From the NCBI RefSeq assembly GCF_009834535.1, contig NC_045696.1, forward strand, positions 49,850,001-49,914,000: 64,000 nt of DNA, in the 5' to 3' direction. Both the position numbers and the translations under genes were made by a program. The notes under the pieces were generated by a model. That model was not told the DNA's origin. It saw nothing but the letters and a program-made list of their open reading frames with translations, and did not search any database. This document shows positions 43,314 to 56,595 of the stretch, in pieces. Each line of letters opens with the position of its first letter. Within the stretch, counting starts at the first letter, position 1. The DNA comes from Camelus ferus (taxonomy: Eukaryota).

Positions 43314-43430
43314 GTATTCTATGCAGCAACAGAACTTTTAGGTGTGGCAATGATATTTGCTTTAGGAAACAAAATGCAAAATGTGATGGGACTGTGGACT
43401 GCCCAGATGGAAGCGACGAGGAAGGCTGCA
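43314..43430 (+). CDS. TMPRSS7: TMPRSS7 exon 14 (LDLa 3)
   Basis: (S)ILCSNRTFRCGNDICFRKQNAKCDGTVDCPDGSDEEGC. Confidence 0.95.
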
Positions 43431-43779
43431 GTGAGTAGAAACACGTTCCCCCTGATTCCTTGTACTTTCCTCCACAGTTGATTTGTCTTGCATTTGCATT
43501 CCCTTCTTGGTATAATCCCCCTGGCAGAAGTTGCCACAGGCCAGGGAAGAATAGTAAATATTAATTAACTGAATCTGAAATGGTTTCTCAGAATTAAAAT
43601 CCTAGAGTGGATTCTATCTTCTTTTTTGACAAGCATTAATGCACTGGATGTTTATAATGAAAATTTTTCACTGTCTAATAACTCTAATCAGATAAGTTCT
43701 TTAAAAAAAAAAAACCTATGAAAAAAGAAGTAAGTACTGGAATGCCGTTAATGATTATGTTAATTATGCTGTATGTTAA

Positions 43780-44760
43780 GATCTGTAGGTTGTCTTTTCA
43801 TTTTGTTGATGGTATCCTTAGCTGTGCAAAAGCTTTTAAGTTTAATAAGGTCTCATTTGTTTATTTTTGCTTTTATTTCCATTACTCTAGGAGCTCGTCT
43901 GAAAAAAATATTGCAGTGATTTATATCAAAGAGTGTTCTGCTTATGTTTTCCTCTAGGAGTTTTATAGTATCTGGTCTTACATTTAGGACTTTAATCCAT
44001 TTTGAGTTTATTTTTGTTTATGGTGTTAGAGAATGCTCTAAGTTCATTCTTTTACAAGTAGCTGCCCAGTTTTCCCGGCAACATTTATTGAAGAGACTGT
44101 CTTTTCTCCATTGTATATTTTTGCCTCCTTTATTATAGATTAATTGACCACAAGTGTGTGAGTTTATTTCTGGACTTTCTATCCTGTTCCGTTGATCTAT
44201 GTGTCTGTTTTTGTGCCAGTACCATACTGTTTTGATTACTGTAGTTTTGTAGTATGGCCTAAAGTCAGGGAGCATGATTCGCCAGCTCCATTCTTCATTC
44301 TCAAGAATGTTTTGTTTATTCAGAGTCTTTTGTTTTTCCATACAAATTTTAACATTTTTTTGCTCCAATTCTGTGAAAAATGTTTTTGGGTTTCTGATAG
44401 GCATTGCATTGAATCTGTATATTGCCTTGGGTAGTATGGCCATTTTAACAAGTATTGATTTTTCCAACCCAAGAACATGACATTTCTTTCCATCTGCTTG
44501 TGTCATCTTCAGTGTCTTGCAGTTTTTGGAGTACAGATCCTTTGCCTCCTAGTAGATTTATTCCTAGGTATTTTATTCTTTTTGAGTGATTGTAAATAGG
44601 ATTGTTTCCTTAATTTCCTTTTAATGCTTTGTTGGAGTCAATTTGCTAGTATTTTGTTGAGAATTTTTGCATATATATTCATAAGTGATATGGGCCTGTA
44701 ATTTTCTTTTCTTTTTTGTGATATCTTTGTCTGGTTTTGGACTTAGAGTGATGGTAGCAT
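43780..44760 (-). mobile_element. L1 ORF2 fragment
   Basis: ORF 44018-44506 ([17 protein letters not shown]...[27 protein letters not shown]) is L1 ORF2. Confidence 0.92.
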
Positions 44761-46433
44761 CTTTTACCCAAAAGAAAACAGTCTTTTCAAGCAACACATG
44801 GAAAATACCCCAAACCTGAATTTAGTACACAAAAAATGATGTTGAACACTGTCCATAGCGCAATAAAATTAGAAGTTTACATAATTCTTTTCACTCTTTA
44901 ATTATACCAGAAATCATAGCAAGAACTACGAGTTACTATGAATGACAATGAGAAATCTGTAGAAAATCTGTAGAAAATCTGTAGAAATTGATAAGGCAGT
45001 TCTCAGAGGGAAATATTTAATCCTAACTTAATTTATTAAGAAATAAGAAAGGTTGAAAAATGAGTACACACACATATCCAAAATTCCCATCCCCCCCAAA
45101 GTAATAAGAGGAGTCAGTTAATAAAGTTAAAAGCGCAAATTAATAAAATGGTACACAAAATGTAGCCTTAATCAAAAACACCAAAATCTGTTTTTTCTAA
45201 TGCTAATGATACAGATAAACTGGCTAGAGTAATCAGGGAAAACGAAGGCAGCCCAACAACATCCTCTCAACAACCCTGAACATCAGGAATGACGAGATGG
45301 GCACAGCGACACGTACAAATCAGGAGCCCCGAGTGGTGCATAAGTCCTGTTTCAGTGAGGGGTACTCTCAGTGGATGTGCAAAGTTCCAGGGCAACACCC
45401 GTTGTTAGGACAGGTGTTTCCTAAACATTGGCTTGAGATGTTGCAGAGCAGAGATGTGAAGAAATTGCTGCTTTTAGAATGCAGAGGAGAAAAGGGTATC
45501 AAAGCTAGAGTTTTAACATCTTGGGCGATTTTCCTCTTTGACTATGGAAGAAATAATTTAGTGGAAAGTCTACAATTCTTTGCTGCTTGTATGAAATTCC
45601 ATTTAGAGTCCCCCAGTCGGTAAATCCTGCGCTGTAGATGGTGTGACGCTTCCCCTTCCCACTCCGTGAAGGCTGATGGAGAGCAACAGCACGCAGGAGG
45701 AGATAAAAGCCCAGCAGCACTTCCTTCCGTGTAGCACAGGGAACTACACTCAACATCCTGTGGCAACCTTTAATGAAAAGGAATATACGTATGTATATGC
45801 ATGCCTGGGGCATTATGGGGTACACCAGAAATCGACACATTGTAACTGACTATATTTCAATAAAAAAAAACCAAACACGCCAGCAGCAAGGTGAGGGGTG
45901 GTGTCTTATGGAATCACAGGAGAAAGGTCTAACACAAGTAGGAAACTCAGCAGATAAGTGGGCAGTGCAGGTGTATGGTTTAGGCAATAGACTATGTGAA
46001 CCTATGTAACCTCCCTATTTAATTATTTTTAATATTTTTCTGTAGAAGAGGGACACACCCAATTTTAAGGCTTATTGCTAAATTACCTTCCAAAAAGGCC
46101 CTATTCACTTATACTCCCCCAAGTATTCCCAATTCTTTACAAATATAGAAAATTAATATTTTAAACATTATTCAACTTGATAGATGAAAAATTATATCTT
46201 AATTAGAAAGAGTTTTTATGTCTGTTTTATCTAGTGAAAACAGTTTCTAAATATCAAAGTCTTTGATAACAAAAATGGGGAAAGTAGAAAGAAAAACTCT
46301 TCCAAACGAATCACACGTTGAAATAATCCATGCAGACAGACGAAACAGCACAGCACAAACAATAGTGGCCAAATGGCTCCACTCTAGAAATTGTGTTTCC
46401 TGGATTCCAAGCAGGGCAATGGAGTATCTTTAC

Positions 46434-46515
46434 CTTGTGCCTCGCATAGCATCAGAGCTGACAAGAACCAGATCAGTTTGCAGGTGAACAGATGACAGAA
46501 GAGCCTCCTGAACAC
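46434..46515 (-). pseudogene. CD200 (OX-2)-like exon 2, signal peptide VFRRLFCHLFTCKLIWFLSALMLCEAQ(G); partial duplicate, functional status unknown
   Basis: Minus-strand acceptor TCTGTCCTTTGCTTTCTGTCTTCAG, 82-nt open exon, donor AAG|GTAAAG. Phase 0-1; 13/27 identical to recalled human CD200 VIRMPFSHLSTYSLVWVMAAVVLCTAQ. Confidence 0.85.
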
Positions 46516-48289
46516 CTGAAGACAGAAAGCAAAGGACAGAAATGGGCATTTGCATGAGGACAAGGCTATGGAAACTTTGATCTGATCACTATGTCAGGGA
46601 GTGTTGCAGCTACAGTTTAACCACTGGAAACCTTTGGTTTTGTGGCAGAAAAGCAGCAGCGTGTATCTCATTACGGTGGTCTCTAGCAATGGGAGGCCTT
46701 GGCATCACGGCAAGGGAACAGTGAAACAGAAAACACAGGAAAGCAAGGCACAGATGCTTTCTGCCCTTGAATTTCAACCAAGTTCTATTACCATCCTCCT
46801 GAACTCCCCATTCCTGGGGATCAGGCACAGAGCATCCTTTTCAGGACACAAACTGGTGTCTTAGCATAGACACTAGTCAGTCCCTCTTTGCTCCCCCAGC
46901 CTAGGGTCAGAAAAGCTGCTTCCTCCATCACCTTGTATTCTTCCCATCAACTCCTTCTTGGATGAACGTTTATCCTTGGTCTTTCAGCATTTAGGCTTTT
47001 AAAACTCAAATACTTAGGCTCTCGCTATTTAACAACTTTGACTTCTGAAACTAAAAAGTTTTTTTCTGGCATTCTAATCCCATATCAATTTTTTTTAAAC
47101 CATCATGCCACATTGAAATCCAGGCTTTAGCAAAGGCTGTTTTGAGGAATGCAGAATAATTTAGCTCTCAGCGTGAAAAATCTGTGTTTTAGGATAGGCG
47201 AGAAAGCCAAAACACAAGATATGTGAACTGGGAGCCAGCAGTGGTCAAGAAACAGAAGCACAGTGACTGAGGCAAAGGGAATTAGAAGGAAAGGCCTGCT
47301 ATTAAATATATACATATTTCCTCTGGCTGACTTGAGTTCAGGTGAGCACAAAGACTAGATGTGTAAGCTGGGACAGATCATTTTACATTTCTGAGATGCA
47401 GTAAAAATATTCCCAACCTTCTTTCTGTTAAAAAGACTAAATGCGGTCATATATGTAAAGCTCTTGGAACAGTGACTGATAGAAGTAAGTACTAAATCAA
47501 TGTTGCTGTTATCTCATTGGGTTACACTGAGAATTTAATATAGTGCCTAAGATATGGTAAATGCCAACATGTGTTACGTGGTCATAATAATCCATTAATC
47601 AAATTTTACAGTAATGGAAATGGAGAAGTCCATTTATAACCCGTGCCAAAAGCGCCAGGGTTCACAGAGCCCTGGCTCTTACCTGACAGCTGCCTGCCTG
47701 GCAGCTCCATTGTCCCTATACGTACCTCGTTACCCTGAAAGCTTCTAGGTCCAAATCCTGACCCTGACATATTACACAGTCACATGGACTTGGAGACATT
47801 TTCTGCCTGTTTCTTTGTGAAATTGGGTAATAATTCCTCCTTTGACGGATAGTTGTGAAGGTTAAGAGCATCTAGCACATGGTAAACATTACTTGAAGGC
47901 CTTTGTTAAGAAAGACATTGAAATAACCGGCTGTGGGGTCTTGCCAATAAACTATATATGAAAAAAATTCACCCTGAGGCATTACCTGTATTTGGATTTT
48001 AATTTTTATTGTTTTTTAAAAATTACACCAGTGTAAATGAAGACCCTCTCCTTCATTCTGTCATGTATACAGATCCTGAATGAACAAAATGTCTGTCTCT
48101 CATAGCCTGGGTTTTAACCCTGATGTAGCCGATCGTTTATGGCTTCCCAAGGCAAAGGCGCAGAGGATGGAGAAAGAGGCTGGAGCGTCATGGAGGGAGC
48201 GAGCTCTCCCAGGGACAGTAATCCCGAAATTCACAACCCCACCCCAGCTTTCAGGGCCTAAACGGAGCCAATACAGCACCCTCTATCCC

Positions 48290-48800
48290 TGCCACCAGCG
48301 CGCGACCCCCAGGCCCAGTTCCCCTCCAGGGATGTCAATGGTCTTCGGAGAAGCGCCTGCGGAGCCACCGCCCGGCGGCATCCTTTCTCTAGCACGTTGA
48401 GACAGAGAACCGGATGGCCAGAACGGCCTGTAAACCATCAGCTAGCAGGCAAAATCAGCTTCTCTGCAAGGATAAGCGCTGAGAGGAAAGCGCTAGCAAA
48501 AATCCCAGCTCCGGACCAGCCTGAGGAGGGCCGCAGCCTGGCGCTCTCAGCCCGCCACCGCCCCAGGGCCGCCGGCGCGACACCGCCCACCCCGAGCCCT
48601 CTTTCCCTCGCCTGGCCCGGCTCACCAGCCTCTCCATCCTCGCTCCTGGCCGCGCGCGCTGGCGGGCTTCAGCTGGAGGTCCGGAGGGATCTCACGCCAG
48701 ACCCGGCGGTGCTGGAGGAAGGTCCTCGCCACTAGGAAGCCCCCCGCAATCGCAGTGATTCCCCGCCCCTCACTCCTCCCCCTGCCCCGCCCCCTTACTT
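48290..48800 (-). promoter_or_regulatory. Intragenic CpG island / TATA-less promoter of the CD200-like unit
   Basis: Sharp CpG/GC enrichment against an AT-rich, CpG-poor background. Two GC boxes (GGGGCGGGG on minus) at 48761-48769 and 48785-48793, upstream of the MERL ATG. Confidence 0.75.
48626..48637 (-). pseudogene. CD200 (OX-2)-like exon 1 coding part (ATG GAG AGG CTG = MERL)
   Basis: Minus strand GCGCGCGCGGCCAGGAGCGAGG-ATGGAGAGGCTG|GTGAGC: strong Kozak, 4 codons, consensus donor. CD200 begins MERL on a short first exon. Confidence 0.85.
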
Positions 48801-51169
48801 TCCCCTGCACACACACAAACACACACTTAACACACATCACACACACAGAGGAGCCGAGGCCAGGTAGGTTAGTGCTAGGCAATTAAATGCCTTTTAAAAA
48901 CATGCTCATCTTTTTTCTATCTTCAAACAGTTCGAATTTTTCAGAGATGGCAACTGGGGAAACGGAGAAAGTGTTTGAAAAAAATATACACTTTTCCCAT
49001 TTTCATCTTACAGAGAGAAAGGATACAGGGCGAGATCGGAGGACGTGAAGCGTTTCACGGCATTCGCGCTGGGAGGAATGGCAGTCTGCGCTGTGGAGCA
49101 GGCATGTAGGAAATGATTTTTGAGCAGTGTTACAGTTTCCCCAGTTACCACCTCTGAAAAATGCAAATATTTTGAAGCCGAATCTAACCAAGAAGCACTT
49201 TACAAAAAACAAATGTATATTTATTTTTATCCAGAACCAAATTGTATCTTTAAGCCGTCAACGTCGCTCTTTCACCAGTGTGACTGGATTTCTTTTCTGT
49301 GAGGCATTTTCTAACACTTGCGTTGATGCTGAGGATTCTTATTTTAACAAGTTCCAGAGTTCTCGGCTCTTAAAAAATAAACAAAGACAAACAGATCAAT
49401 GAAGTGCTCAATTCCTAAAGCCTTTCCTGTTCGCCCACCAGCACCCCTCTGATAAGGTGCTGGAACAGAGCCTTTACTTAAGGATTCATGGGGCTGTAAA
49501 TCCCAGGGCTGTAAATAAAAAATGACTGATTTTTTTTTCAGAAAAACATTAACATAAAGTACACATTGAAAGGACCAAAAGATTCACAGAGTGGCAAACA
49601 GGCATTTAGAAGAGAAAGCCAACTTAAGGACATATTATAATGAAATGAAGAACATCAAAGTAAGGAAATCGAAGAGAAAATTCTTAAAGCTTCAAAAATG
49701 AAAAGTAGAGACACTGAAGAAAAGAAACAAAGTGACTTTGTCACAAGGCAGTGCTGGATGCAGGAAGGCAATGAGCTAATTTTCAAAATATTGAAGAAAA
49801 TCAGCTTTGACTTCCACTTTGCCTTTTATAAATATTGCTACAAAGGTATATTTTAAAAAATACTTTTCACTTTTGATTGTGTTATTCATAGAGGAAAGTG
49901 CATACCTCATGAGTACACAGTTTGAATTGCCATAGAGTAAACATGCTTGCATAGCTGTGAGCAGATAAAACCCTGACGGTTCCGAGCCCCACAGAGCCGG
50001 TTCCACCCTCTTTGCTCACTCTTCCTGCACTACCGCCTCTGCCACCACCCACTGCTGTCTTACTCTTAGCATCATGAAATAGGCCTGCCTGTTAGTGAAC
50101 TTGATATAAATGACGTCATGGAGTATGTCCCCACTTGTATCTGGGTTCTTTCACTCAACAGTAGATTTGAAAAATTCATCCATGATTTTGCATGTCAGCT
50201 GTGAGTCATTCATTCTCACTGCTGTATACTATCCCATTCTGTAAACACCACATTTATTTACTACTTTACTGTTACTAGACATTTGTGTGTTTTCCATTTG
50301 GGGGTTATTTTTAATAGTGGTGCTATAAACATTTTTATACATGGCTTTTCCTAAACATGTGTACATCATTCTGTTAGATTATTTTTTGTTTTATCTCTTC
50401 CTCTTCATTTTTAATCTTTCTCTATTCTTTTCTTTCCCAATTGTGTAGATGATATTTTGTGGGACCTCAATTTTTTAAAACTACTGAAAGACTCTGTCCT
50501 AAATTTTAAGAGCAAAATATTACAAAATGACAGGATGAAAAAAGATTTTGTTAAGCATATAAACCTCAGAAAATGTATTATATCAGGACTCTCCTTGAAA
50601 ACACTTTTGAAAAAAGCATTCTGGAAGAAAGAAAAATGAACCCAGGAGGATGCTACATAGAAAGATATGCAGAAAGGATATATAACTTATCAAAATTTGT
50701 AACTGCCTAAAAAAGCAAGATTCCCCCAAGTCATATATCTATAATAAAATAATTAAAAAATTCAAGCCTACATGGAAGGACGTAAGGGTTTAGGTAGTAA
50801 GATTATGAGAGGTAGGTGAGAATTATGCCAAGATGTATATGCTTAAGAAATAGACATTAAAAAATAAATATAAGTATTACTCTTAGTAAGTTAGGGCAAA
50901 GCATCAAAAGAATAGCATAATGTAAGACTCAGAATAGAAAAAGAATATTTAACCTAATGAAAGACAGCACAGGAGAAAATAGAGAAATATTACCAAAATA
51001 TAAAGGTCAAAAAAAAATGGAAAAAATGCCCTATTAGTAATTATGACATGTATGAATAAGTTACAAACACAAAAGATAGAGACTTGGGATACAGAAGAGT
51101 GAACCAAAGAGGGGAAAAAAGTTCCTGCCATCATGGAAAATAAATATTACTTTAAAAATTCTTTGGAAG

Positions 51170-51210
51170 AAGGGTGAAGGTATAGCTCAGTGGCAGAGTG
51201 CATGCCTAGC
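51170..51210 (+). mobile_element. 5' fragment of the same tRNA-derived SINE family
   Basis: GGTATAGCTCAGTGGCAGAGTGCATGCCTAGC, cut off abruptly at the L1 that follows. Confidence 0.65.
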
Positions 51211-53040
51211 TGTGGACTTATCATATATGGCTTTTATTATGCTGAGGTTAATTCCTTCTATACCTACTTTCTGAAGAGTTTTTTTTTATCATAAATGGAT
51301 GTTGAATTTTATCAAAAGCTTTTCTTTATCTGTTGAGATCATCATATGATTTTTATTCTTCAGTTTGTTACAGTGGTGTATCACACTGGTTGAATTGTAG
51401 GTATTGTACCATCTTTACATTCCTGGGATCAATCCTATTTGACCATGGTGCATGATTCTTTTTAAATATTGTTTAATTTAGTTTGCTAATATTTTGTTGA
51501 GGAAAGTTGCATTTATGCTCACCAGTGATATTGGCCTATAATTTTCCTTTTTGTGTGATATATTTATCTGGTTTAGGTATCCAGGTGATGCTGTCCTCAT
51601 AAATGAGTTCAGAAACATACCGTATTCTGCATTTTTTGAAAAAAATTTGGGAAGGATAGGTGTTAACTCTTCTCTAACTGTTTGATAGAATTCACCTGTG
51701 ATTTATCTGGTTCTGGTCTTTTGTTTGTTGGGAGTTTTTAAATTACTGATTTGATTTCCATACTGGTAATTGGTCTATTCACTATTTTGTATTTCTTCCT
51801 GCTTTAGTCTTGGGAAAGTGCACATTTCTGAAATTTCTCCATTTCTTCAAAGTTGTCCATTTTATTGGCATATAGTTGCTCATAGTAGTCTCTTATGATT
51901 CTTTGTATTTCTGTGGTGTCAGTCATAACTTCTCTTTCATTTCCAATTTTATTTATTTGGAACACTTCTCTTTTCTTCTTGATGTGTCTGACTAAAGGTT
52001 TATCAATTTTGTTTATCTTTTCAAAGAACCAGCAATGAGTTTCATTGATCTTTTCTATTTTTTAAGTCTATTTCATGTATTTCTGCTCTGATCTTTATGA
52101 CTTCTTTCCCTCTATTAACTTTAGGTCTTGTTTGTTCTTAATTTTCTAGTTCCATTAAGTGTAAGATCAGATTGTTATTTGAGATTTTTCTTGTTCCCTG
52201 AGGTACCCTTGTATCATTTGGACTTCTCTCTCAGAAATCTTTGGCTGTGTCCCATATATTTTGTATCATTGTGTTTTCATTTGTCTCCAGGTGTTTTTTA
52301 AAATTTCTTCTTTGTGATTTAGTGATTCGTTGGCTATTTAGTAGCGTATTGTTTAGCCTCCATGTGTTTGTGTTTTATGCAATTTTTTTCTTAGAGTTTG
52401 TTTTTAGTCTAATAGCCTCAGGGTTAGAAAAGATGCTTCATGTGATTTCAATCTTCTTAGACTTACTGCGACTTGAATTCTTCCATGAATTAGCACGTGA
52501 TCTATCCTGGAGAATGTTCCATGTGCACTTGAAAAGAATATGTATTCTACTCTTTTGGATGGAATGTTCTATATAGATCTACTAAGTTCACTTGGTCTGA
52601 AGTGTTTTTTAAGGCCACTATATCATTATTATTTTTCTGTCTGGACGATCTGTCCATTGATGTAAATGGGGTGTTATTGTCCCTTACTGTTATTGTATCA
52701 GTGTAAATTTCTCCCTTTATGTATGTTACTATTTCCTTTATATATTTAGGTGCTCCTAGGTTGAGTGTATATATGTTTGCAATTGTTACATGTTCCTGTT
52801 GGATTGATCCCTTTATCAATGTGTAATGTCCTTCTTTGTGTCTTGTTACATCTTTGTTTCAAAGCCTATTTTGTCTGATATAAGTATCACTTCCCTGGCT
52901 TTATTTTGATTTCCATTTGTGTGGAATACCTTTTCCATCCCCGTACCTTCCGGCTAGTGTATCTTTAGATCTGATGTGAGTTTCTTGTAAGTAGCATATA
53001 TATGGGCTTTTCTTTTCATTCACTCAGCCACTCTGTCTTA
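51211..53040 (-). mobile_element. L1 ORF2 fragment (endonuclease to RT region)
   Basis: ORF 52547-52819 MIKGSIQQEHVTIANIYTLNLGAPKYIKEI...LVDLYRTFHPK is the L1 APE endonuclease. Confidence 0.9.
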
Positions 53041-53084
53041 TTTTATTTCTTATTTTATTTCTCTGTCTTATTTTTACTTCTTAA

Positions 53085-53568
53085 TTTTTATTGAAGTTTA
53101 ATCGATTTACAGTGTTAGTTTCAGGTATACAGCAAAGCAATTCAGTTATACATATACATACATATATATTTTTTCAGTTTCTTTTCCATTACAGTTTATT
53201 ACAAGAAATTGAATATAGTTCCTTGTGCTATACAGTAGGTCCTTATTGTTTATCTAGTTTATATATAATATTGTGTATCTGTTAATCCTAAACTCCTAAT
53301 CTATCCCTCTCCCCTTTCCTTTTTGATAACCAGTGGTTTTTTTTTTTCTGTATCTATGAATCTATTTCTGGTTTATAAATAAAATTTGTATCATTTTTAA
53401 AAAATTCCACATGTAAGTGACATCATATAATAGTATCCTTTCTCTGCCTGGCTTACTTCACTTAATATGATAGTCTCTGGGCCCATCCATGTTGCTGCAA
53501 ATGGCATTACTTATTCTTTTGTATGGCTCAGTAACAGTCCATTATTTTATATATATATATAGACAAAT

Positions 53569-53619
<51 letters not shown>

Positions 53620-54940
53620 CCACATCTTTATCATTCATCTGGTGATGGACACTTAGGTTGTTTCCATGTCTTGGCTATTGTATGTAGGGCTGCTGTGAAC
53701 ATTGGGGTGCATGTGTCTTTTCCAGTTATAGTTTCTCTGGATGTATGCCCAGGAGTGTGATTGCTGGATCATATGGTAAGTGTATTTTTAATTTTTTAAG
53801 GATCCTTCTTACTGTCCTCCATAGTGGCTGCATCAATTTACATTCACACCAACAGTGTAGGAGGGTTCCTTTACTTCACACCCTCTTCAGCATTTATTAT
53901 TTGAAGAGTTTTTAGTGATGGCCATTCTGAGTGGTGTGAGGTGATACATCATTGTAGTTTTGATTTGCATTTCTCTAATAAATAGCAACAATGAGCATCC
54001 TTTCATGTGCCTGCTGGCCATCTGGATGTCTTCTTTGGAGAAATGTCTATTTAGGTCTTCTACCCATTTTTTGATTAGGTTGTTTGGGGTTTTTTATGTT
54101 GAGCTGTTTGTGTGTTTTGGAAATTAGTCCCTTGTCAGTTGCATCATTTGCAAATATTTTCTCCCATTCTGTAAGTTGTCTTTTTATTTTGTTAATGGTA
54201 TCTTTAGCTGTGCAAAAGCTTTTAACTTTAATTGTGTCTTATTTGTTTATTTTTGCTTTTATTTCCATTACTCTAGGAGCTCGTCTGAAAAAAAATATTG
54301 CTGTGATTTATGTCAAACAGTGTTCTGCCTATGTTTTCCTCTAGTTTTATAGTATCCAGTCTTACATTTAGTATGTTAATCCATTTTGAGTTTGTTTTTG
54401 TACATGGTGTTAGAGAATGTTCTAATTTCATTCTTTTACAAGTAGCTGTCTTGTTTTCCCAGCAACATTTATTGAAGAGACTGTCTTTTCTCCATTGTAT
54501 ATTCTTGCCTCCTTTATTATAGGTTAATTGATTATAAGTGTGTGAATTTACTTTTAGACTTTCTATCCTGTTCCATTGATCTGTGTGTCTCTTTTTGTGC
54601 CAGTACCATACTGTTTTGATTACTGTAGTTTTGTAGCATGGTCTAAAGTCATGGGGCATAATTCCCCAGCTCTATTCTTGTTTCTCAAGATTGTTTTGTC
54701 TATTCATGGTCTTTTGTGTTACCCTGCAAATTTTAATATTTTTTGTTCCAGTTCTCTGAAAATGTCATTGGTTATTTTATAGGCATTGCATTGAATCTGT
54801 ATATTGCCTTGGGTAGTATGGCCATTTTAAAAATATTGATTCTTCCAACCCAAGAACATGGCATTTCATTCCATCTGCTTGTGTCATTTTCAATGTCTTT
54901 CTTCAGTGTCTTGTGGTTTTTGGAGTCAGGTCCTTTGACC
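53085..54940 (-). mobile_element. L1 3' portion (ORF2 C-terminal part + 3' UTR)
   Basis: ORF 54273-54659 ([25 protein letters not shown]...). 3' UTR and T-rich tail near 53085. Confidence 0.92.
53571..53618. repeat. (AGAT)12 microsatellite inside L1
   Basis: Direct read. Confidence 0.95.
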
Positions 54941-54959
54941 CTGTTAGAGTCACTACTAG

Positions 54960-55420
54960 AAGGGCTCTGCCCTGGGCCTCAGTCCAAACGAGATTCTGTG
55001 TACACTTCCCAAGAGAGTGATGTGTCTGTTTCCCCCAAGTCCTGTGGAGCTCCTGGAGTTAAGCCCCACTGGCCTTCAAAACCAGATGTTTTGTGGTCTC
55101 TTCCTCCAAATGCTAGAGCCCTGAGCTGGGGAGCCTGATGTGGGGCTCACAACTCTCACTCCTATGGGAGGGCCTCTGTAATTTAATTATTCTCCAGATT
55201 GTGGGTCACTCACCCAGGGGTTATAGGGCCCTATTATATCGTGAACACACCTCTCCTATCATCCTGCTGTGGTTCCCTCTTTATGTTTCCAGTTGAATAA
55301 GATCTATTTTGTCAGGTTGTAGTCTTTTTTTATCGATGATTGTTTAGTAGTCAGTTGTGGTTTTGTTGTCATTGTGAGAGGAGGTGAGCTCTTGGTCTCA
55401 CTACTGCGCCCTCTTAACCA
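54960..55420 (-). mobile_element. L1 5' UTR-like segment
   Basis: Resembles recalled laurasiatherian L1 5' UTR. Minus-strand start GGTTAAGAGGGCGCAGTAG resembles the L1 5' terminus AAGATGGCG..TAG. Confidence 0.55.
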
Positions 55421-56020
55421 CAGATATGGTTCTTTTTTTAGCTATGACCTGAGAACTCCAACGTGCTTTCTTTTATTATTAGTTGTGTGATCTCTAACTG
55501 GCCATGTGACAACATGTTAATTATACATCCTTATCAATACTGTTTACACTGGAAAGTAATTGCTCTGATAACCAGTTTTTCTTAGCTAGTTTTTCTTAAC
55601 TAGGTTTTCATTTGTTTTGGACTTACAAATTTCCCCCCAAATGCTTTCCCTCCAATCAGCACAATTTCAGTGACACTTTCAATTCTGTTGCATTTGAAAC
55701 TAATTTTTTTCTCTACCTAACAACCTGAACCCCACGTCTGCTGTCCCCGTCAGTACAGCTGTTACTAATAGGCCCCCTCCTCCCTTTGTGTGTGTTATTG
55801 TGGGGAGTCAGTAACTCTGTGTCAAGGCCTATTTTTGGGAGGGAGGGAGTGGTTTGTTGGTGCTGGTTTTAGATGAACCCACAAACTGCCTTTCCAGATA
55901 AGCAGGGGATTTCAAGTTGCCTACCTGGTTAGTCAGTTCCCAATAGCTCAAAAGTTGACTGTATTTCCAGTTTTTCTTCCAAGTCTGCCTTTAAATCATG
56001 TGACCCTTCCTCTCCTAAAG

Positions 56021-56192
56021 GCTGCAGCAGGAGTTCCTCCACCCTCCACCGCATCATTGGGGGCATCGACACCCAAGAAGGGGGTTGGCCGTGGCAAGTC
56101 AGCCTCCACTTTGTCGGATCTGCCTACTGCGGGGCCTCAGTCATCTCCAGGGAGTGGCTTCTCTCCGCTGCCCACTGCTTCCATGGAAACAG
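56021..56192 (+). CDS. TMPRSS7: TMPRSS7 exon 15 (activation site R|IIGG, catalytic His)
   Basis: CSRSSSTLHR-IIGGIDTQEGGWPWQVSLHFVGSAYCGASVISREWLLSAAHCFHGN(R). Confidence 0.96.
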
Positions 56193-56595
56193 GTGGGGCA
56201 TCTCAATCCTTACTCTAAAGGGGCACAGTCTCTGACCACAGACCATACAAATGCCCTCACACTGTGGGAAGAAATTCCCTGTTGGAATTGTTTAATCAGT
56301 TCTGTTGGTGGTTTTGTTTTGTTTTGTTTTTATTGTGACACCAGTTGTATGCCAAACATTTTTTTTTTTAGGTATTATTGATATAAATATAAGAACACAA
56401 AGGAACATCAAGAATGAATAGGCTTTTACGAGGCTAAGAAAATAGGATAGGGCTTTCAAGTCAGAAGGAATTCTGTGCGAATGTGTGAGGAATGTGGAGT
56501 GTGGGACTGCGTGGGAAATGGGCCCTGGAGGAGGACTGGAGTCCAGGGATCCTTATTTAGAGTTGGAGGTGATGATCGGCATCCCAATTTCCAAT

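Follow-up and report, generated by a model that had tools for sequence, protein, structure and literature searches.

A partial duplicate of the CD200 5' end, probably 3'-truncated and DNA-mediated, in an intron of TMPRSS7 of Camelus ferus

How did a segment resembling the start of CD200, the gene for the OX-2 membrane glycoprotein, come to lie on the antisense strand of an intron of the protease gene TMPRSS7, and is it the start of a working gene? This question is raised by a 64-kb stretch of the Camelus ferus genome (contig NC_045696.1; hereafter referred to as the window, with position 1 at its first nucleotide), in which a first-pass annotation made from the sequence alone had described a hidden antisense CD200-like gene start. 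The segment is real and lineage-specific, and it belongs to a known kind, the partial segmental duplicates. As judged from the sequence, it is very probably a 3'-truncated, DNA-mediated duplicate of CD200 that comprises the promoter and the signal-peptide exons, with no gene body. In the course of events that we propose, a 10.2-kb piece of the 5' end of CD200 would have been copied, in inverted orientation, into intron 14 of TMPRSS7, between an interspersed repeat and an older fragment of a long interspersed element 1 (L1), and the promoter core would later have been homogenised with the parent through gene conversion. The copy would encode the CD200 signal peptide only (MERL and 27 further residues), with neither Ig nor transmembrane exons following. 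Mammalian genomes commonly contain partial segmental duplicates of this type.

Structure and extent of the CD200-derived segment

All elements of the module as first described, i.e. the Kozak ATG, the MERL codons, the GTGAGC donor, the 2110-nt intron, the strong acceptor, the 82-nt exon, and the GTAAAG donor, proved to be exact to the base (Table 1). On the minus strand, the start codon (48637-48635) lies in the Kozak context gcgaggATGG, with A at position -3 and G at position +4; the intron 1 copy ends in a long pyrimidine tract and a cag acceptor, tttctgtcctttgctttctgtcttcag; and the exon 2 copy is translated as VFRRLFCHLFTCKLIWFLSALMLCEAQ plus one base, with the GTAAAG donor next to it. The promoter, exon 1, and exon 2 had been described as copied together with the frame and all three splice sites intact, and the frame and these splice sites are indeed identical to those of the parent. 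In the 5' untranslated region of exon 1, position 48647 is A in the copy and G in the parent, and a 1-nt indel is located at 48707.

Similarity to CD200 was found at the levels of both protein and DNA. In tblastn searches, Camelus CD200 proteins matched positions 46515-46435 with 25 of 27 residues identical (E = 2e-11), and the human CD200 N-terminus on which the original assignment was based agrees with that of the human protein (P0040). A search of the camel genome itself, which the first-pass annotation had named as a check, was performed with 46300-48900 as the query and gave one other long match, C1:50071973-50074560, on the opposite strand with 97% identity; the remaining 19 matches were 40-55 bp in length and corresponded to a GT-rich stretch. 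At its full extent the similarity covers 10.2 kb at 95% DNA identity (blastn), and the MAFFT pairwise alignment of the duplicate and the parent contains 360 substitutions and 172 gap columns in 10,235 columns. With a protein match and a DNA match of ~10 kb to the true CD200 locus, the exon 1/exon 2 module is far beyond chance. The genome contains two copies only, the one in the window and the parent.

The parent gene starts with an ATG at C1:50072234, and its exon 2 (C1:50074345-50074426) is followed by an IgV exon at ~C1:50077495-50077845 (exon open reading frame (ORF), 50077492-50077857), an IgC2 exon at 50080180-50080455, and a transmembrane exon from ~50082392 onward. The parent exons share 88-100% identity with Camelus CD200 proteins, and the IgV exon used as a query retrieved proteins named OX-2 membrane glycoprotein. 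The distance between the two start codons is 173.6 kb and that between the inner edges of the two repeats is 161 kb, on the same chromosome and in inverted orientation; the earlier statement that the real CD200 lies in the same block is thus correct, at a distance of ~174 kb. In the mouse, rat, and human, as described in the relevant portion of a preprint (bioRxiv 10.1101/2023.08.29.555319), Cd200 and the pair Gcsam and Tmprss7 lie within 1 Mb of SLC9C1, to opposite sides of it, indicating that the parent CD200 of the camel sits at the expected place.

Read in the direction of CD200, the duplicate begins with the 3' part of the upstream L1 and ~2.4 kb of unique DNA; the CpG-island promoter and exons 1 and 2, with intron 1 between them, follow, and it ends 1.7 kb into intron 2. 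The notion of a gene start therefore needs to be divided: the promoter and the first two exons are present, but there is no gene behind them, and the other CD200 exons were not found in the 64-kb window. Four CD200 proteins (two from camels, one from a suid, and one from human) matched the window by tblastn with residues 5-31/32 only, none of them locating an IgV, IgC2, or transmembrane exon; one further match had an E-value of 0.11 and was judged to be due to chance. The DxGxYxC motif was detected in none of the 996 stop-to-stop ORFs of at least 35 amino acids in the window, and the transmembrane/cytoplasmic exon was detected by tblastn in the parent region only. The copy matches its parent in the promoter and CpG island, in the 12-nt coding exon 1, in the split of the 82-nt exon 2, in the splice sites, and in 25 of the 27 signal-peptide residues in exon 2, but it is devoid of the IgV, IgC2, transmembrane, and cytoplasmic exons and is inverted and nested in another gene.

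The CpG island of the copy (Table 1) and that of the parent have near-identical values (parent: GC, 0.644; CpG observed/expected, 0.71; 45 CpGs). An imperfect GT-rich microsatellite, located at 48800-48870 of the window directly upstream of the island, is common to both copies and gave rise to the 19 short genome-wide matches mentioned above. For annotation purposes, the duplicate accounts for the presence of a CpG island and of a CD200-like open start inside TMPRSS7.

Two observations on the parent gene may be added. Several Camelus bactrianus CD200 isoform models contain an extra exon of 69 amino acids (AYTSQVNTLGDVS…) between exon 2 and the IgV exon; it is located in intron 2 at C1:50077175-50077381, ~1.1 kb past the end of the duplicated segment, and is therefore absent from the copy. 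With vOX2 proteins of elephant endotheliotropic herpesviruses the parent IgV exon shares 79-83% identity, and with the E11 protein of a bat gammaherpesvirus 76%; we take these matches to be known viral captures of CD200 with no bearing on the locus in the TMPRSS7 intron.

The host gene was identified on the plus strand by motif scans, which gave three LDLa exons at ~40.8, 42.4, and 43.3 kb and the protease motifs of TMPRSS7 (an RIIGG...AAHC exon at 56.0 kb and GDSGGP at 62.25 kb). The protease exon used as a query retrieved proteins named transmembrane protease serine 7 across many vertebrates, and full-length TMPRSS7 (P0126, 831 amino acids) yielded 18 coding-exon matches on the plus strand when compared with the window by tblastn. 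No stop was found in the TMPRSS7 exons proper, the single stop seen being located in the intronic overhang of one alignment. The antisense position in intron 14 was also as originally assigned: the CD200-derived module lies within the 12.6-kb intron between coding exons 14 and 15 (tblastn matches at 43316-43432 and 56023-56193, respectively), the size of which is ~2.4 kb when the insert is subtracted.

Table 1. Features of the CD200-derived segment and its surroundings (positions in the window)
Feature	Position	Strand	Remarks
Inverted CD200 5'-end duplicate, 10.2 kb	44762..54947	-	Parent C1:50065995-50076093 (+); one blastn block, 95.0% over 10,227 columns
CD200 exon 1 copy, coding part	48626..48637	-	ATG GAG AGG CTG = MERL, then GTGAGC donor at 48625-48620; identical to parent
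CD200 intron 1 copy	46516..48625	-	2110 nt; 60 substitutions in 2094 aligned sites versus parent
CD200 exon 2 copy (signal peptide)	46434..46515	-	82 nt, 27 codons and 1 nt, phase 1; acceptor and donor identical to parent
Differing site in exon 2	46485	-	A in copy, T in parent; copy Thr, parent Ser
Differing site in exon 2	46450	-	G in copy, A in parent; copy Met, parent Ile
CD200 intron 2, first 1.67 kb	44762..46433	-	Copy stops here, 1.4 kb before the parent IgV exon
CpG island over promoter, exon 1, and start of intron 1	48200..48850		GC, 0.645; CpG observed/expected, 0.71; 45 CpGs
Low-divergence tract over upstream region, CpG island, exon 1, and start of intron 1	48083..50626		18 of 2533 sites differ (0.71%)
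ATG and 8 codons (MEYVPTCIW), then GT, within the duplicate	50118..50144	+	Matches the first coding exon of the alpaca model
Co-duplicated L1 3' part (ORF2 from ~residue 775 to end)	51207..54947	- (sense)	Many genomic L1-type matches, 75-87%
Older L1 fragment of the host intron, adjoining the 3' junction	43782..44761	-	87-88% identity to both L1 copies
Interspersed repeat, ~455 bp, adjoining the 5' junction	54965..55420	-	1941 first-look genome candidates; 40 of these scored, ~79-84% identical apart from the self-match
TMPRSS7 coding exon 14 (LDLa-3)	43316..43432	+	Motif scan, tblastn
TMPRSS7 coding exon 15 (RIIGG...AAHC, start of protease domain)	56023..56193	+	Motif scan, protein search, tblastn

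Junctions, mechanism of copying, and gene conversion

The direction of copying can be read from the two breakpoints. In the parent, the L1 runs on upstream past the 5' breakpoint and remains alignable to other L1s, and intron 2 continues to the IgV, IgC2, and transmembrane exons; both break off in the window, where the sequence upstream of ~54960 is a different element. The copy in the window is thus the derived one. The 3' junction (44762/44761) is blunt, with CD200 intron 2 (…GGGTAAAA) joined to the older L1 fragment of the host intron. The L1 nature of both flanks was also evident at the protein level: ORF 54671-54276 in the co-duplicated L1 matches residues 869-994 of human LINE-1 ORF2p (E = 3e-37, PDB sequence search) and ORF 44548-44021 in the older fragment matches residues 777-955 of ORF2p (E = 2e-43). 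A Pfam search with 10 ORFs from the L1-like flanks returned no families. A homologous crossover between two L1s was rejected as the source of the 5' junction, because the flank upstream of 54960 is a different repeat and not the corresponding part of ORF2.

Neither junction carries a poly(A) tail; the A run at the 3' junction is 4 nt long and is present in the parent too. There is also no target-site duplication abutting the junctions, the sequence shared between them being a displaced 7-mer, ACTCTAA, only. Because intron 1 is retained and a poly(A) tail is lacking, the copy did not arise by retroposition, in agreement with the original interpretation as a DNA-level duplication rather than a retrocopy. 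The junction sequences suggest that the copy arose when DNA in a repeat-rich region was repaired through end-joining or template switching.

In L1-mediated 3' transduction and exon shuffling, transcription reads through an L1 into the adjacent sequence and the product is reverse transcribed into a new site. Such a route, from the upstream L1 into CD200 and thence into the TMPRSS7 intron, would fit the start of the duplicate within an L1 located immediately 5' of the moved exons and oriented like them, as well as the truncation of this L1 at its 5' end by the junction, as in transduced copies. However, neither a poly(A) tail (the 4-nt A run being shared with the parent) nor a target-site duplication is present, the intron has been kept, and an unspliced transduced flank of 6.4 kb would be unusually long. 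We consider transduction to be extremely unlikely and prefer DNA-level repair as the source of the duplicate.

Divergence between the two copies is distributed unevenly. The rest of the duplicate, flanking the low-divergence tract listed in Table 1, differs from the parent at 342 of 7530 sites (4.54%; Fisher p = 9e-25 for the comparison with the tract). The tract has sharp edges, at 50627 and 48082, and runs from ~1.8 kb of upstream sequence through the CpG island and exon 1 to 540 nt into intron 1; the longest runs identical between the copies are 413 and 363 bp in length. This pattern probably reflects gene conversion between the copy and the parent. If the tract had instead been held by purifying selection on two active promoters, one would understand why it takes in the CpG island and exon 1 and why the CpGs have largely survived (68 shared and 4 decayed), but not why the non-island upstream DNA and part of intron 1 show the same uniformly low divergence up to sharp edges; in addition, it is rare for promoter constraint to suppress nearly all neutral change across 2.5 kb. 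Selection is therefore an unlikely explanation for the tract as compared with gene conversion.

For dating, neutral rates of 1.2-2.2e-9 per site per year were assumed. Under these rates, the divergence of the flanks would place the duplication at about 11-20 million years ago and that of the tract would correspond to about 1.6-3 million years. The case illustrates how DNA-level duplication can carry the promoter and signal-peptide module of an immune-checkpoint gene into a different gene, where gene conversion may then keep it parent-like.

Occurrence in camelids and comparison with F8 intron 22

Because one assembly is the basis for both junctions, the CD200 5' end might have been falsely duplicated or misplaced during assembly. 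The divergence of 4.5% and the 172 gap columns are, however, far above those of haplotypes or collapsed repeats, and both regions are free of N (none in the window and none in the 80 kb around the parent). Furthermore, among 24 public runs listed, 14 (from 6 studies) contain 0.70-0.76 of the words sampled from 44700-50300; this evidence consists of word shares rather than read placement, and the run with the largest share may be the source sample. Since the share of 31-mers of 44700-50300 that also occurs in the parent is 0.47, these 14 runs contain copy-specific words. Together with an alpaca gene model that joins an exon internal to the duplicate to TMPRSS7 exons (see below), these data leave an assembly artefact with next to no probability, and the copy is regarded as real. 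As a practical consequence, sequencing reads and primers that target exons 1-2 or the promoter of CD200 will match two loci in camelids.

The alpaca model, P0121 (XP_006219499.2, 287 amino acids, 'transmembrane protease serine 7-like'), starts with MEYVLTCIW and then continues from 55933 into exons 15-18. Its first coding exon has a counterpart on the plus strand of the window, within the duplicate (50118-50144; Table 1), which reads MEYVPTCIW, and in the parent copy the opposite strand gives MEYVLTCIW for the same exon. Identity to other genomic relatives of this piece is ~70-80%, near-identical sequences being found in the two copies only. As the exon can be joined to TMPRSS7 exons only with the inverted copy in the alpaca intron, the model suggests that the duplication predates the camel-alpaca split. 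It is likely, from this sequence evidence and the predicted gene structure, that the duplication is older than the split and common to camels and alpaca.

Two protease-only models, alpaca P0121 and the partial dromedary model P0202, have exon 15 extended upstream into the intron (55933-56022, +), with …KVDCISSFSSKSAFKSCDPSSPKG ahead of the canonical acceptor. Both begin in TMPRSS7 intron 14, and P0121 begins in the duplicated segment. The duplicate may account for such protease-only TMPRSS7 models starting in intron 14.

The arrangement recalls that of intron 22 of F8. In the portion of the literature on this intron considered here (PMC3211038), a 9.5-kb repeat with a CpG island drives antisense F8A and sense F8B; F8B has a private first exon spliced to F8 exons 23-26, and inverted extragenic copies recombine with the intronic repeat. 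A large intron of a protease-pathway gene contains, in the camel as in F8, a CpG-island repeat of ~10 kb, an inverted copy of which lies a few hundred kb away on the same chromosome. In both, there is a start antisense to the host and, if the alpaca model is taken at face value, possibly also a sense first exon spliced to the last exons of the host, and sequence exchange between the copies is evident, here in the form of the conversion tract.

There are also differences. In the camel, ~1.3 kb separate the candidate sense exon from the island, as compared with ~120 bp at most in F8, and the inversion, F8A, and F8B are established for F8, whereas any counterparts in the camel are hypothetical. 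The identity between the two camel copies, 95-99.3%, is much lower than that between the int22h copies. In addition, the conversion tract shows exchange between the copies, not crossover.

A full camelid counterpart of int22h would require the CD200 island to be an active intragenic promoter that produces both an antisense exon 1-exon 2 RNA and, from 50118, a sense protease-only TMPRSS7 isoform, with the two copies occasionally inverting the 161-kb interval between them. This analogy is improbable in its entirety, although if it were true an inversion of the 161-kb interval would part TMPRSS7 exons 1-14 from exons 15-18 and leave CD200 whole. Activity of the promoter or recombination of the inverted pair, should either occur, could affect TMPRSS7.

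Coding state, expected transcripts, and database products

The exon 2 copy differs from its parent at two sites, both of which change an amino acid (Table 1). At these sites, CD200 of alpaca (P0217 and P0223) and pig (P0005) has Thr and Met, as does the copy, whereas the Camelus CD200 proteins have Ser and Ile. The copy thus keeps the ancestral residues, and it is the real Camelus gene that has changed (two derived changes versus none). Because approximately two changes would be expected under neutrality in 82 nt, the lack of change in the copy is not significant and provides no evidence of constraint.

With the promoter and splice sites of the copy being essentially parental, some transcription of it is to be expected, probably where CD200 is transcribed and with exon 1 joined to exon 2 by splicing. 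From there the RNA would continue, antisense to TMPRSS7, into L1-rich intron sequence. On the same strand 3' of exon 2, 18 AATAAA/ATTAAA signals were found, the first at 46033, and 11 of the 18 are located inside the sense-oriented L1 fragment; the product would thus be expected to end early, as a short non-coding or abortive RNA. Should the exon 2 donor remain unused, the reading frame reaches a stop after 16 further codons. In RNA runs, the shares of words of the stretch that were found were 0.41, 0.36, 0.30, 0.15, and 0.07, all below the 0.47 that the parent by itself would account for, and they therefore carry no information on expression of the copy. Biologically, the copy most likely has no effect, or a weak one in cis on TMPRSS7.

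Human-specific duplicates provide a parallel. According to the sections of PMC6169893 that deal with them, 3'-truncated duplicates keep the ancestral start site, all of those studied are transcribed, and they often fuse to downstream sequence; SRGAP2C, ARHGAP11B, and NOTCH2NL are named there as 3'-truncated segmental duplicates. The camel copy resembles these in being an incomplete DNA-level duplication in which the promoter and first exons have been kept and the downstream exons lost, and in which non-coding DNA (the upstream region and introns) has been copied alongside the exons. In contrast to it, they retain exons for truncated proteins and their transcription has been demonstrated, whereas the camel copy has the signal peptide only and is known from its sequence.

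Could the copy nevertheless be a working gene start? Exon 2, which ends in phase 1, might be spliced to cryptic downstream exons to give a new secreted or membrane protein with the CD200 signal peptide, or a regulated antisense RNA might control TMPRSS7. The Kozak ATG, the frame, and all three splice sites are the same as in the parent, the CpG island is intact after millions of years, and exon 2 is unchanged from the ancestral state; moreover, fusion transcripts are common among 3'-truncated duplicates in the sections cited (PMC6169893). Against these points stand the lack, in the two protein databases searched (see below), of any protein that joins exon 2 to new sequence, the termination of the read-through frame after 16 more codons, the sense-strand L1 with many poly(A) signals downstream, and the fact that the identity of the promoter is more simply explained by conversion. 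A working gene start is thus very unlikely, and a truncated duplicate with no gene body remains the preferred interpretation.

Several points nonetheless weigh against the interpretation given here. The ancestral residues kept in the exon 2 copy are compatible with constraint, and the low divergence of the tract could stem from selection on two working promoters. The presence of the duplicate in alpaca is deduced from a single predicted model, the splice sites of which are weak (donor GTTCTT at 50145; acceptor ttag, with its end at 55932), and the dates depend on the neutral rates that were assumed. A search of open-access papers and preprints for CD200 together with TMPRSS7 or alpaca found no paper on a duplication of CD200 into TMPRSS7.

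Products of the copy were sought in two protein databases with the 69-amino-acid ORF around exon 2. A search for proteins of near-equal length gave no candidate, and an exhaustive search of 1.84 billion representatives gave five hits with E <= 0.001, which were weak or read-through ORFs. Three of the five (P0224, P0225, and P0227) were examined and proved to be, instead of chimeras, read-through ORFs from other sources that contain exon 2 of CD200 or a CD200-like exon 2; within this scope, no product joining exon 2 to anything except CD200 or intron read-through was found in the two databases. In P0227 (158 amino acids), a CD200-like exon 2 is read through its donor and is followed by a divergent CD200-like IgV domain (…ITWKKIQDSSPQNIG…EDEACYKC), and this protein is probably a CD200-like paralogue of another mammal.

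A further ATG…GTAAGA unit is located on the minus strand at 47700-47730 of the window, inside the intron 1 copy. The same ATG starts the dromedary model P0210 (MELPGRQLSG), which reads exon 2 in a different frame and looks like an ab initio artefact.

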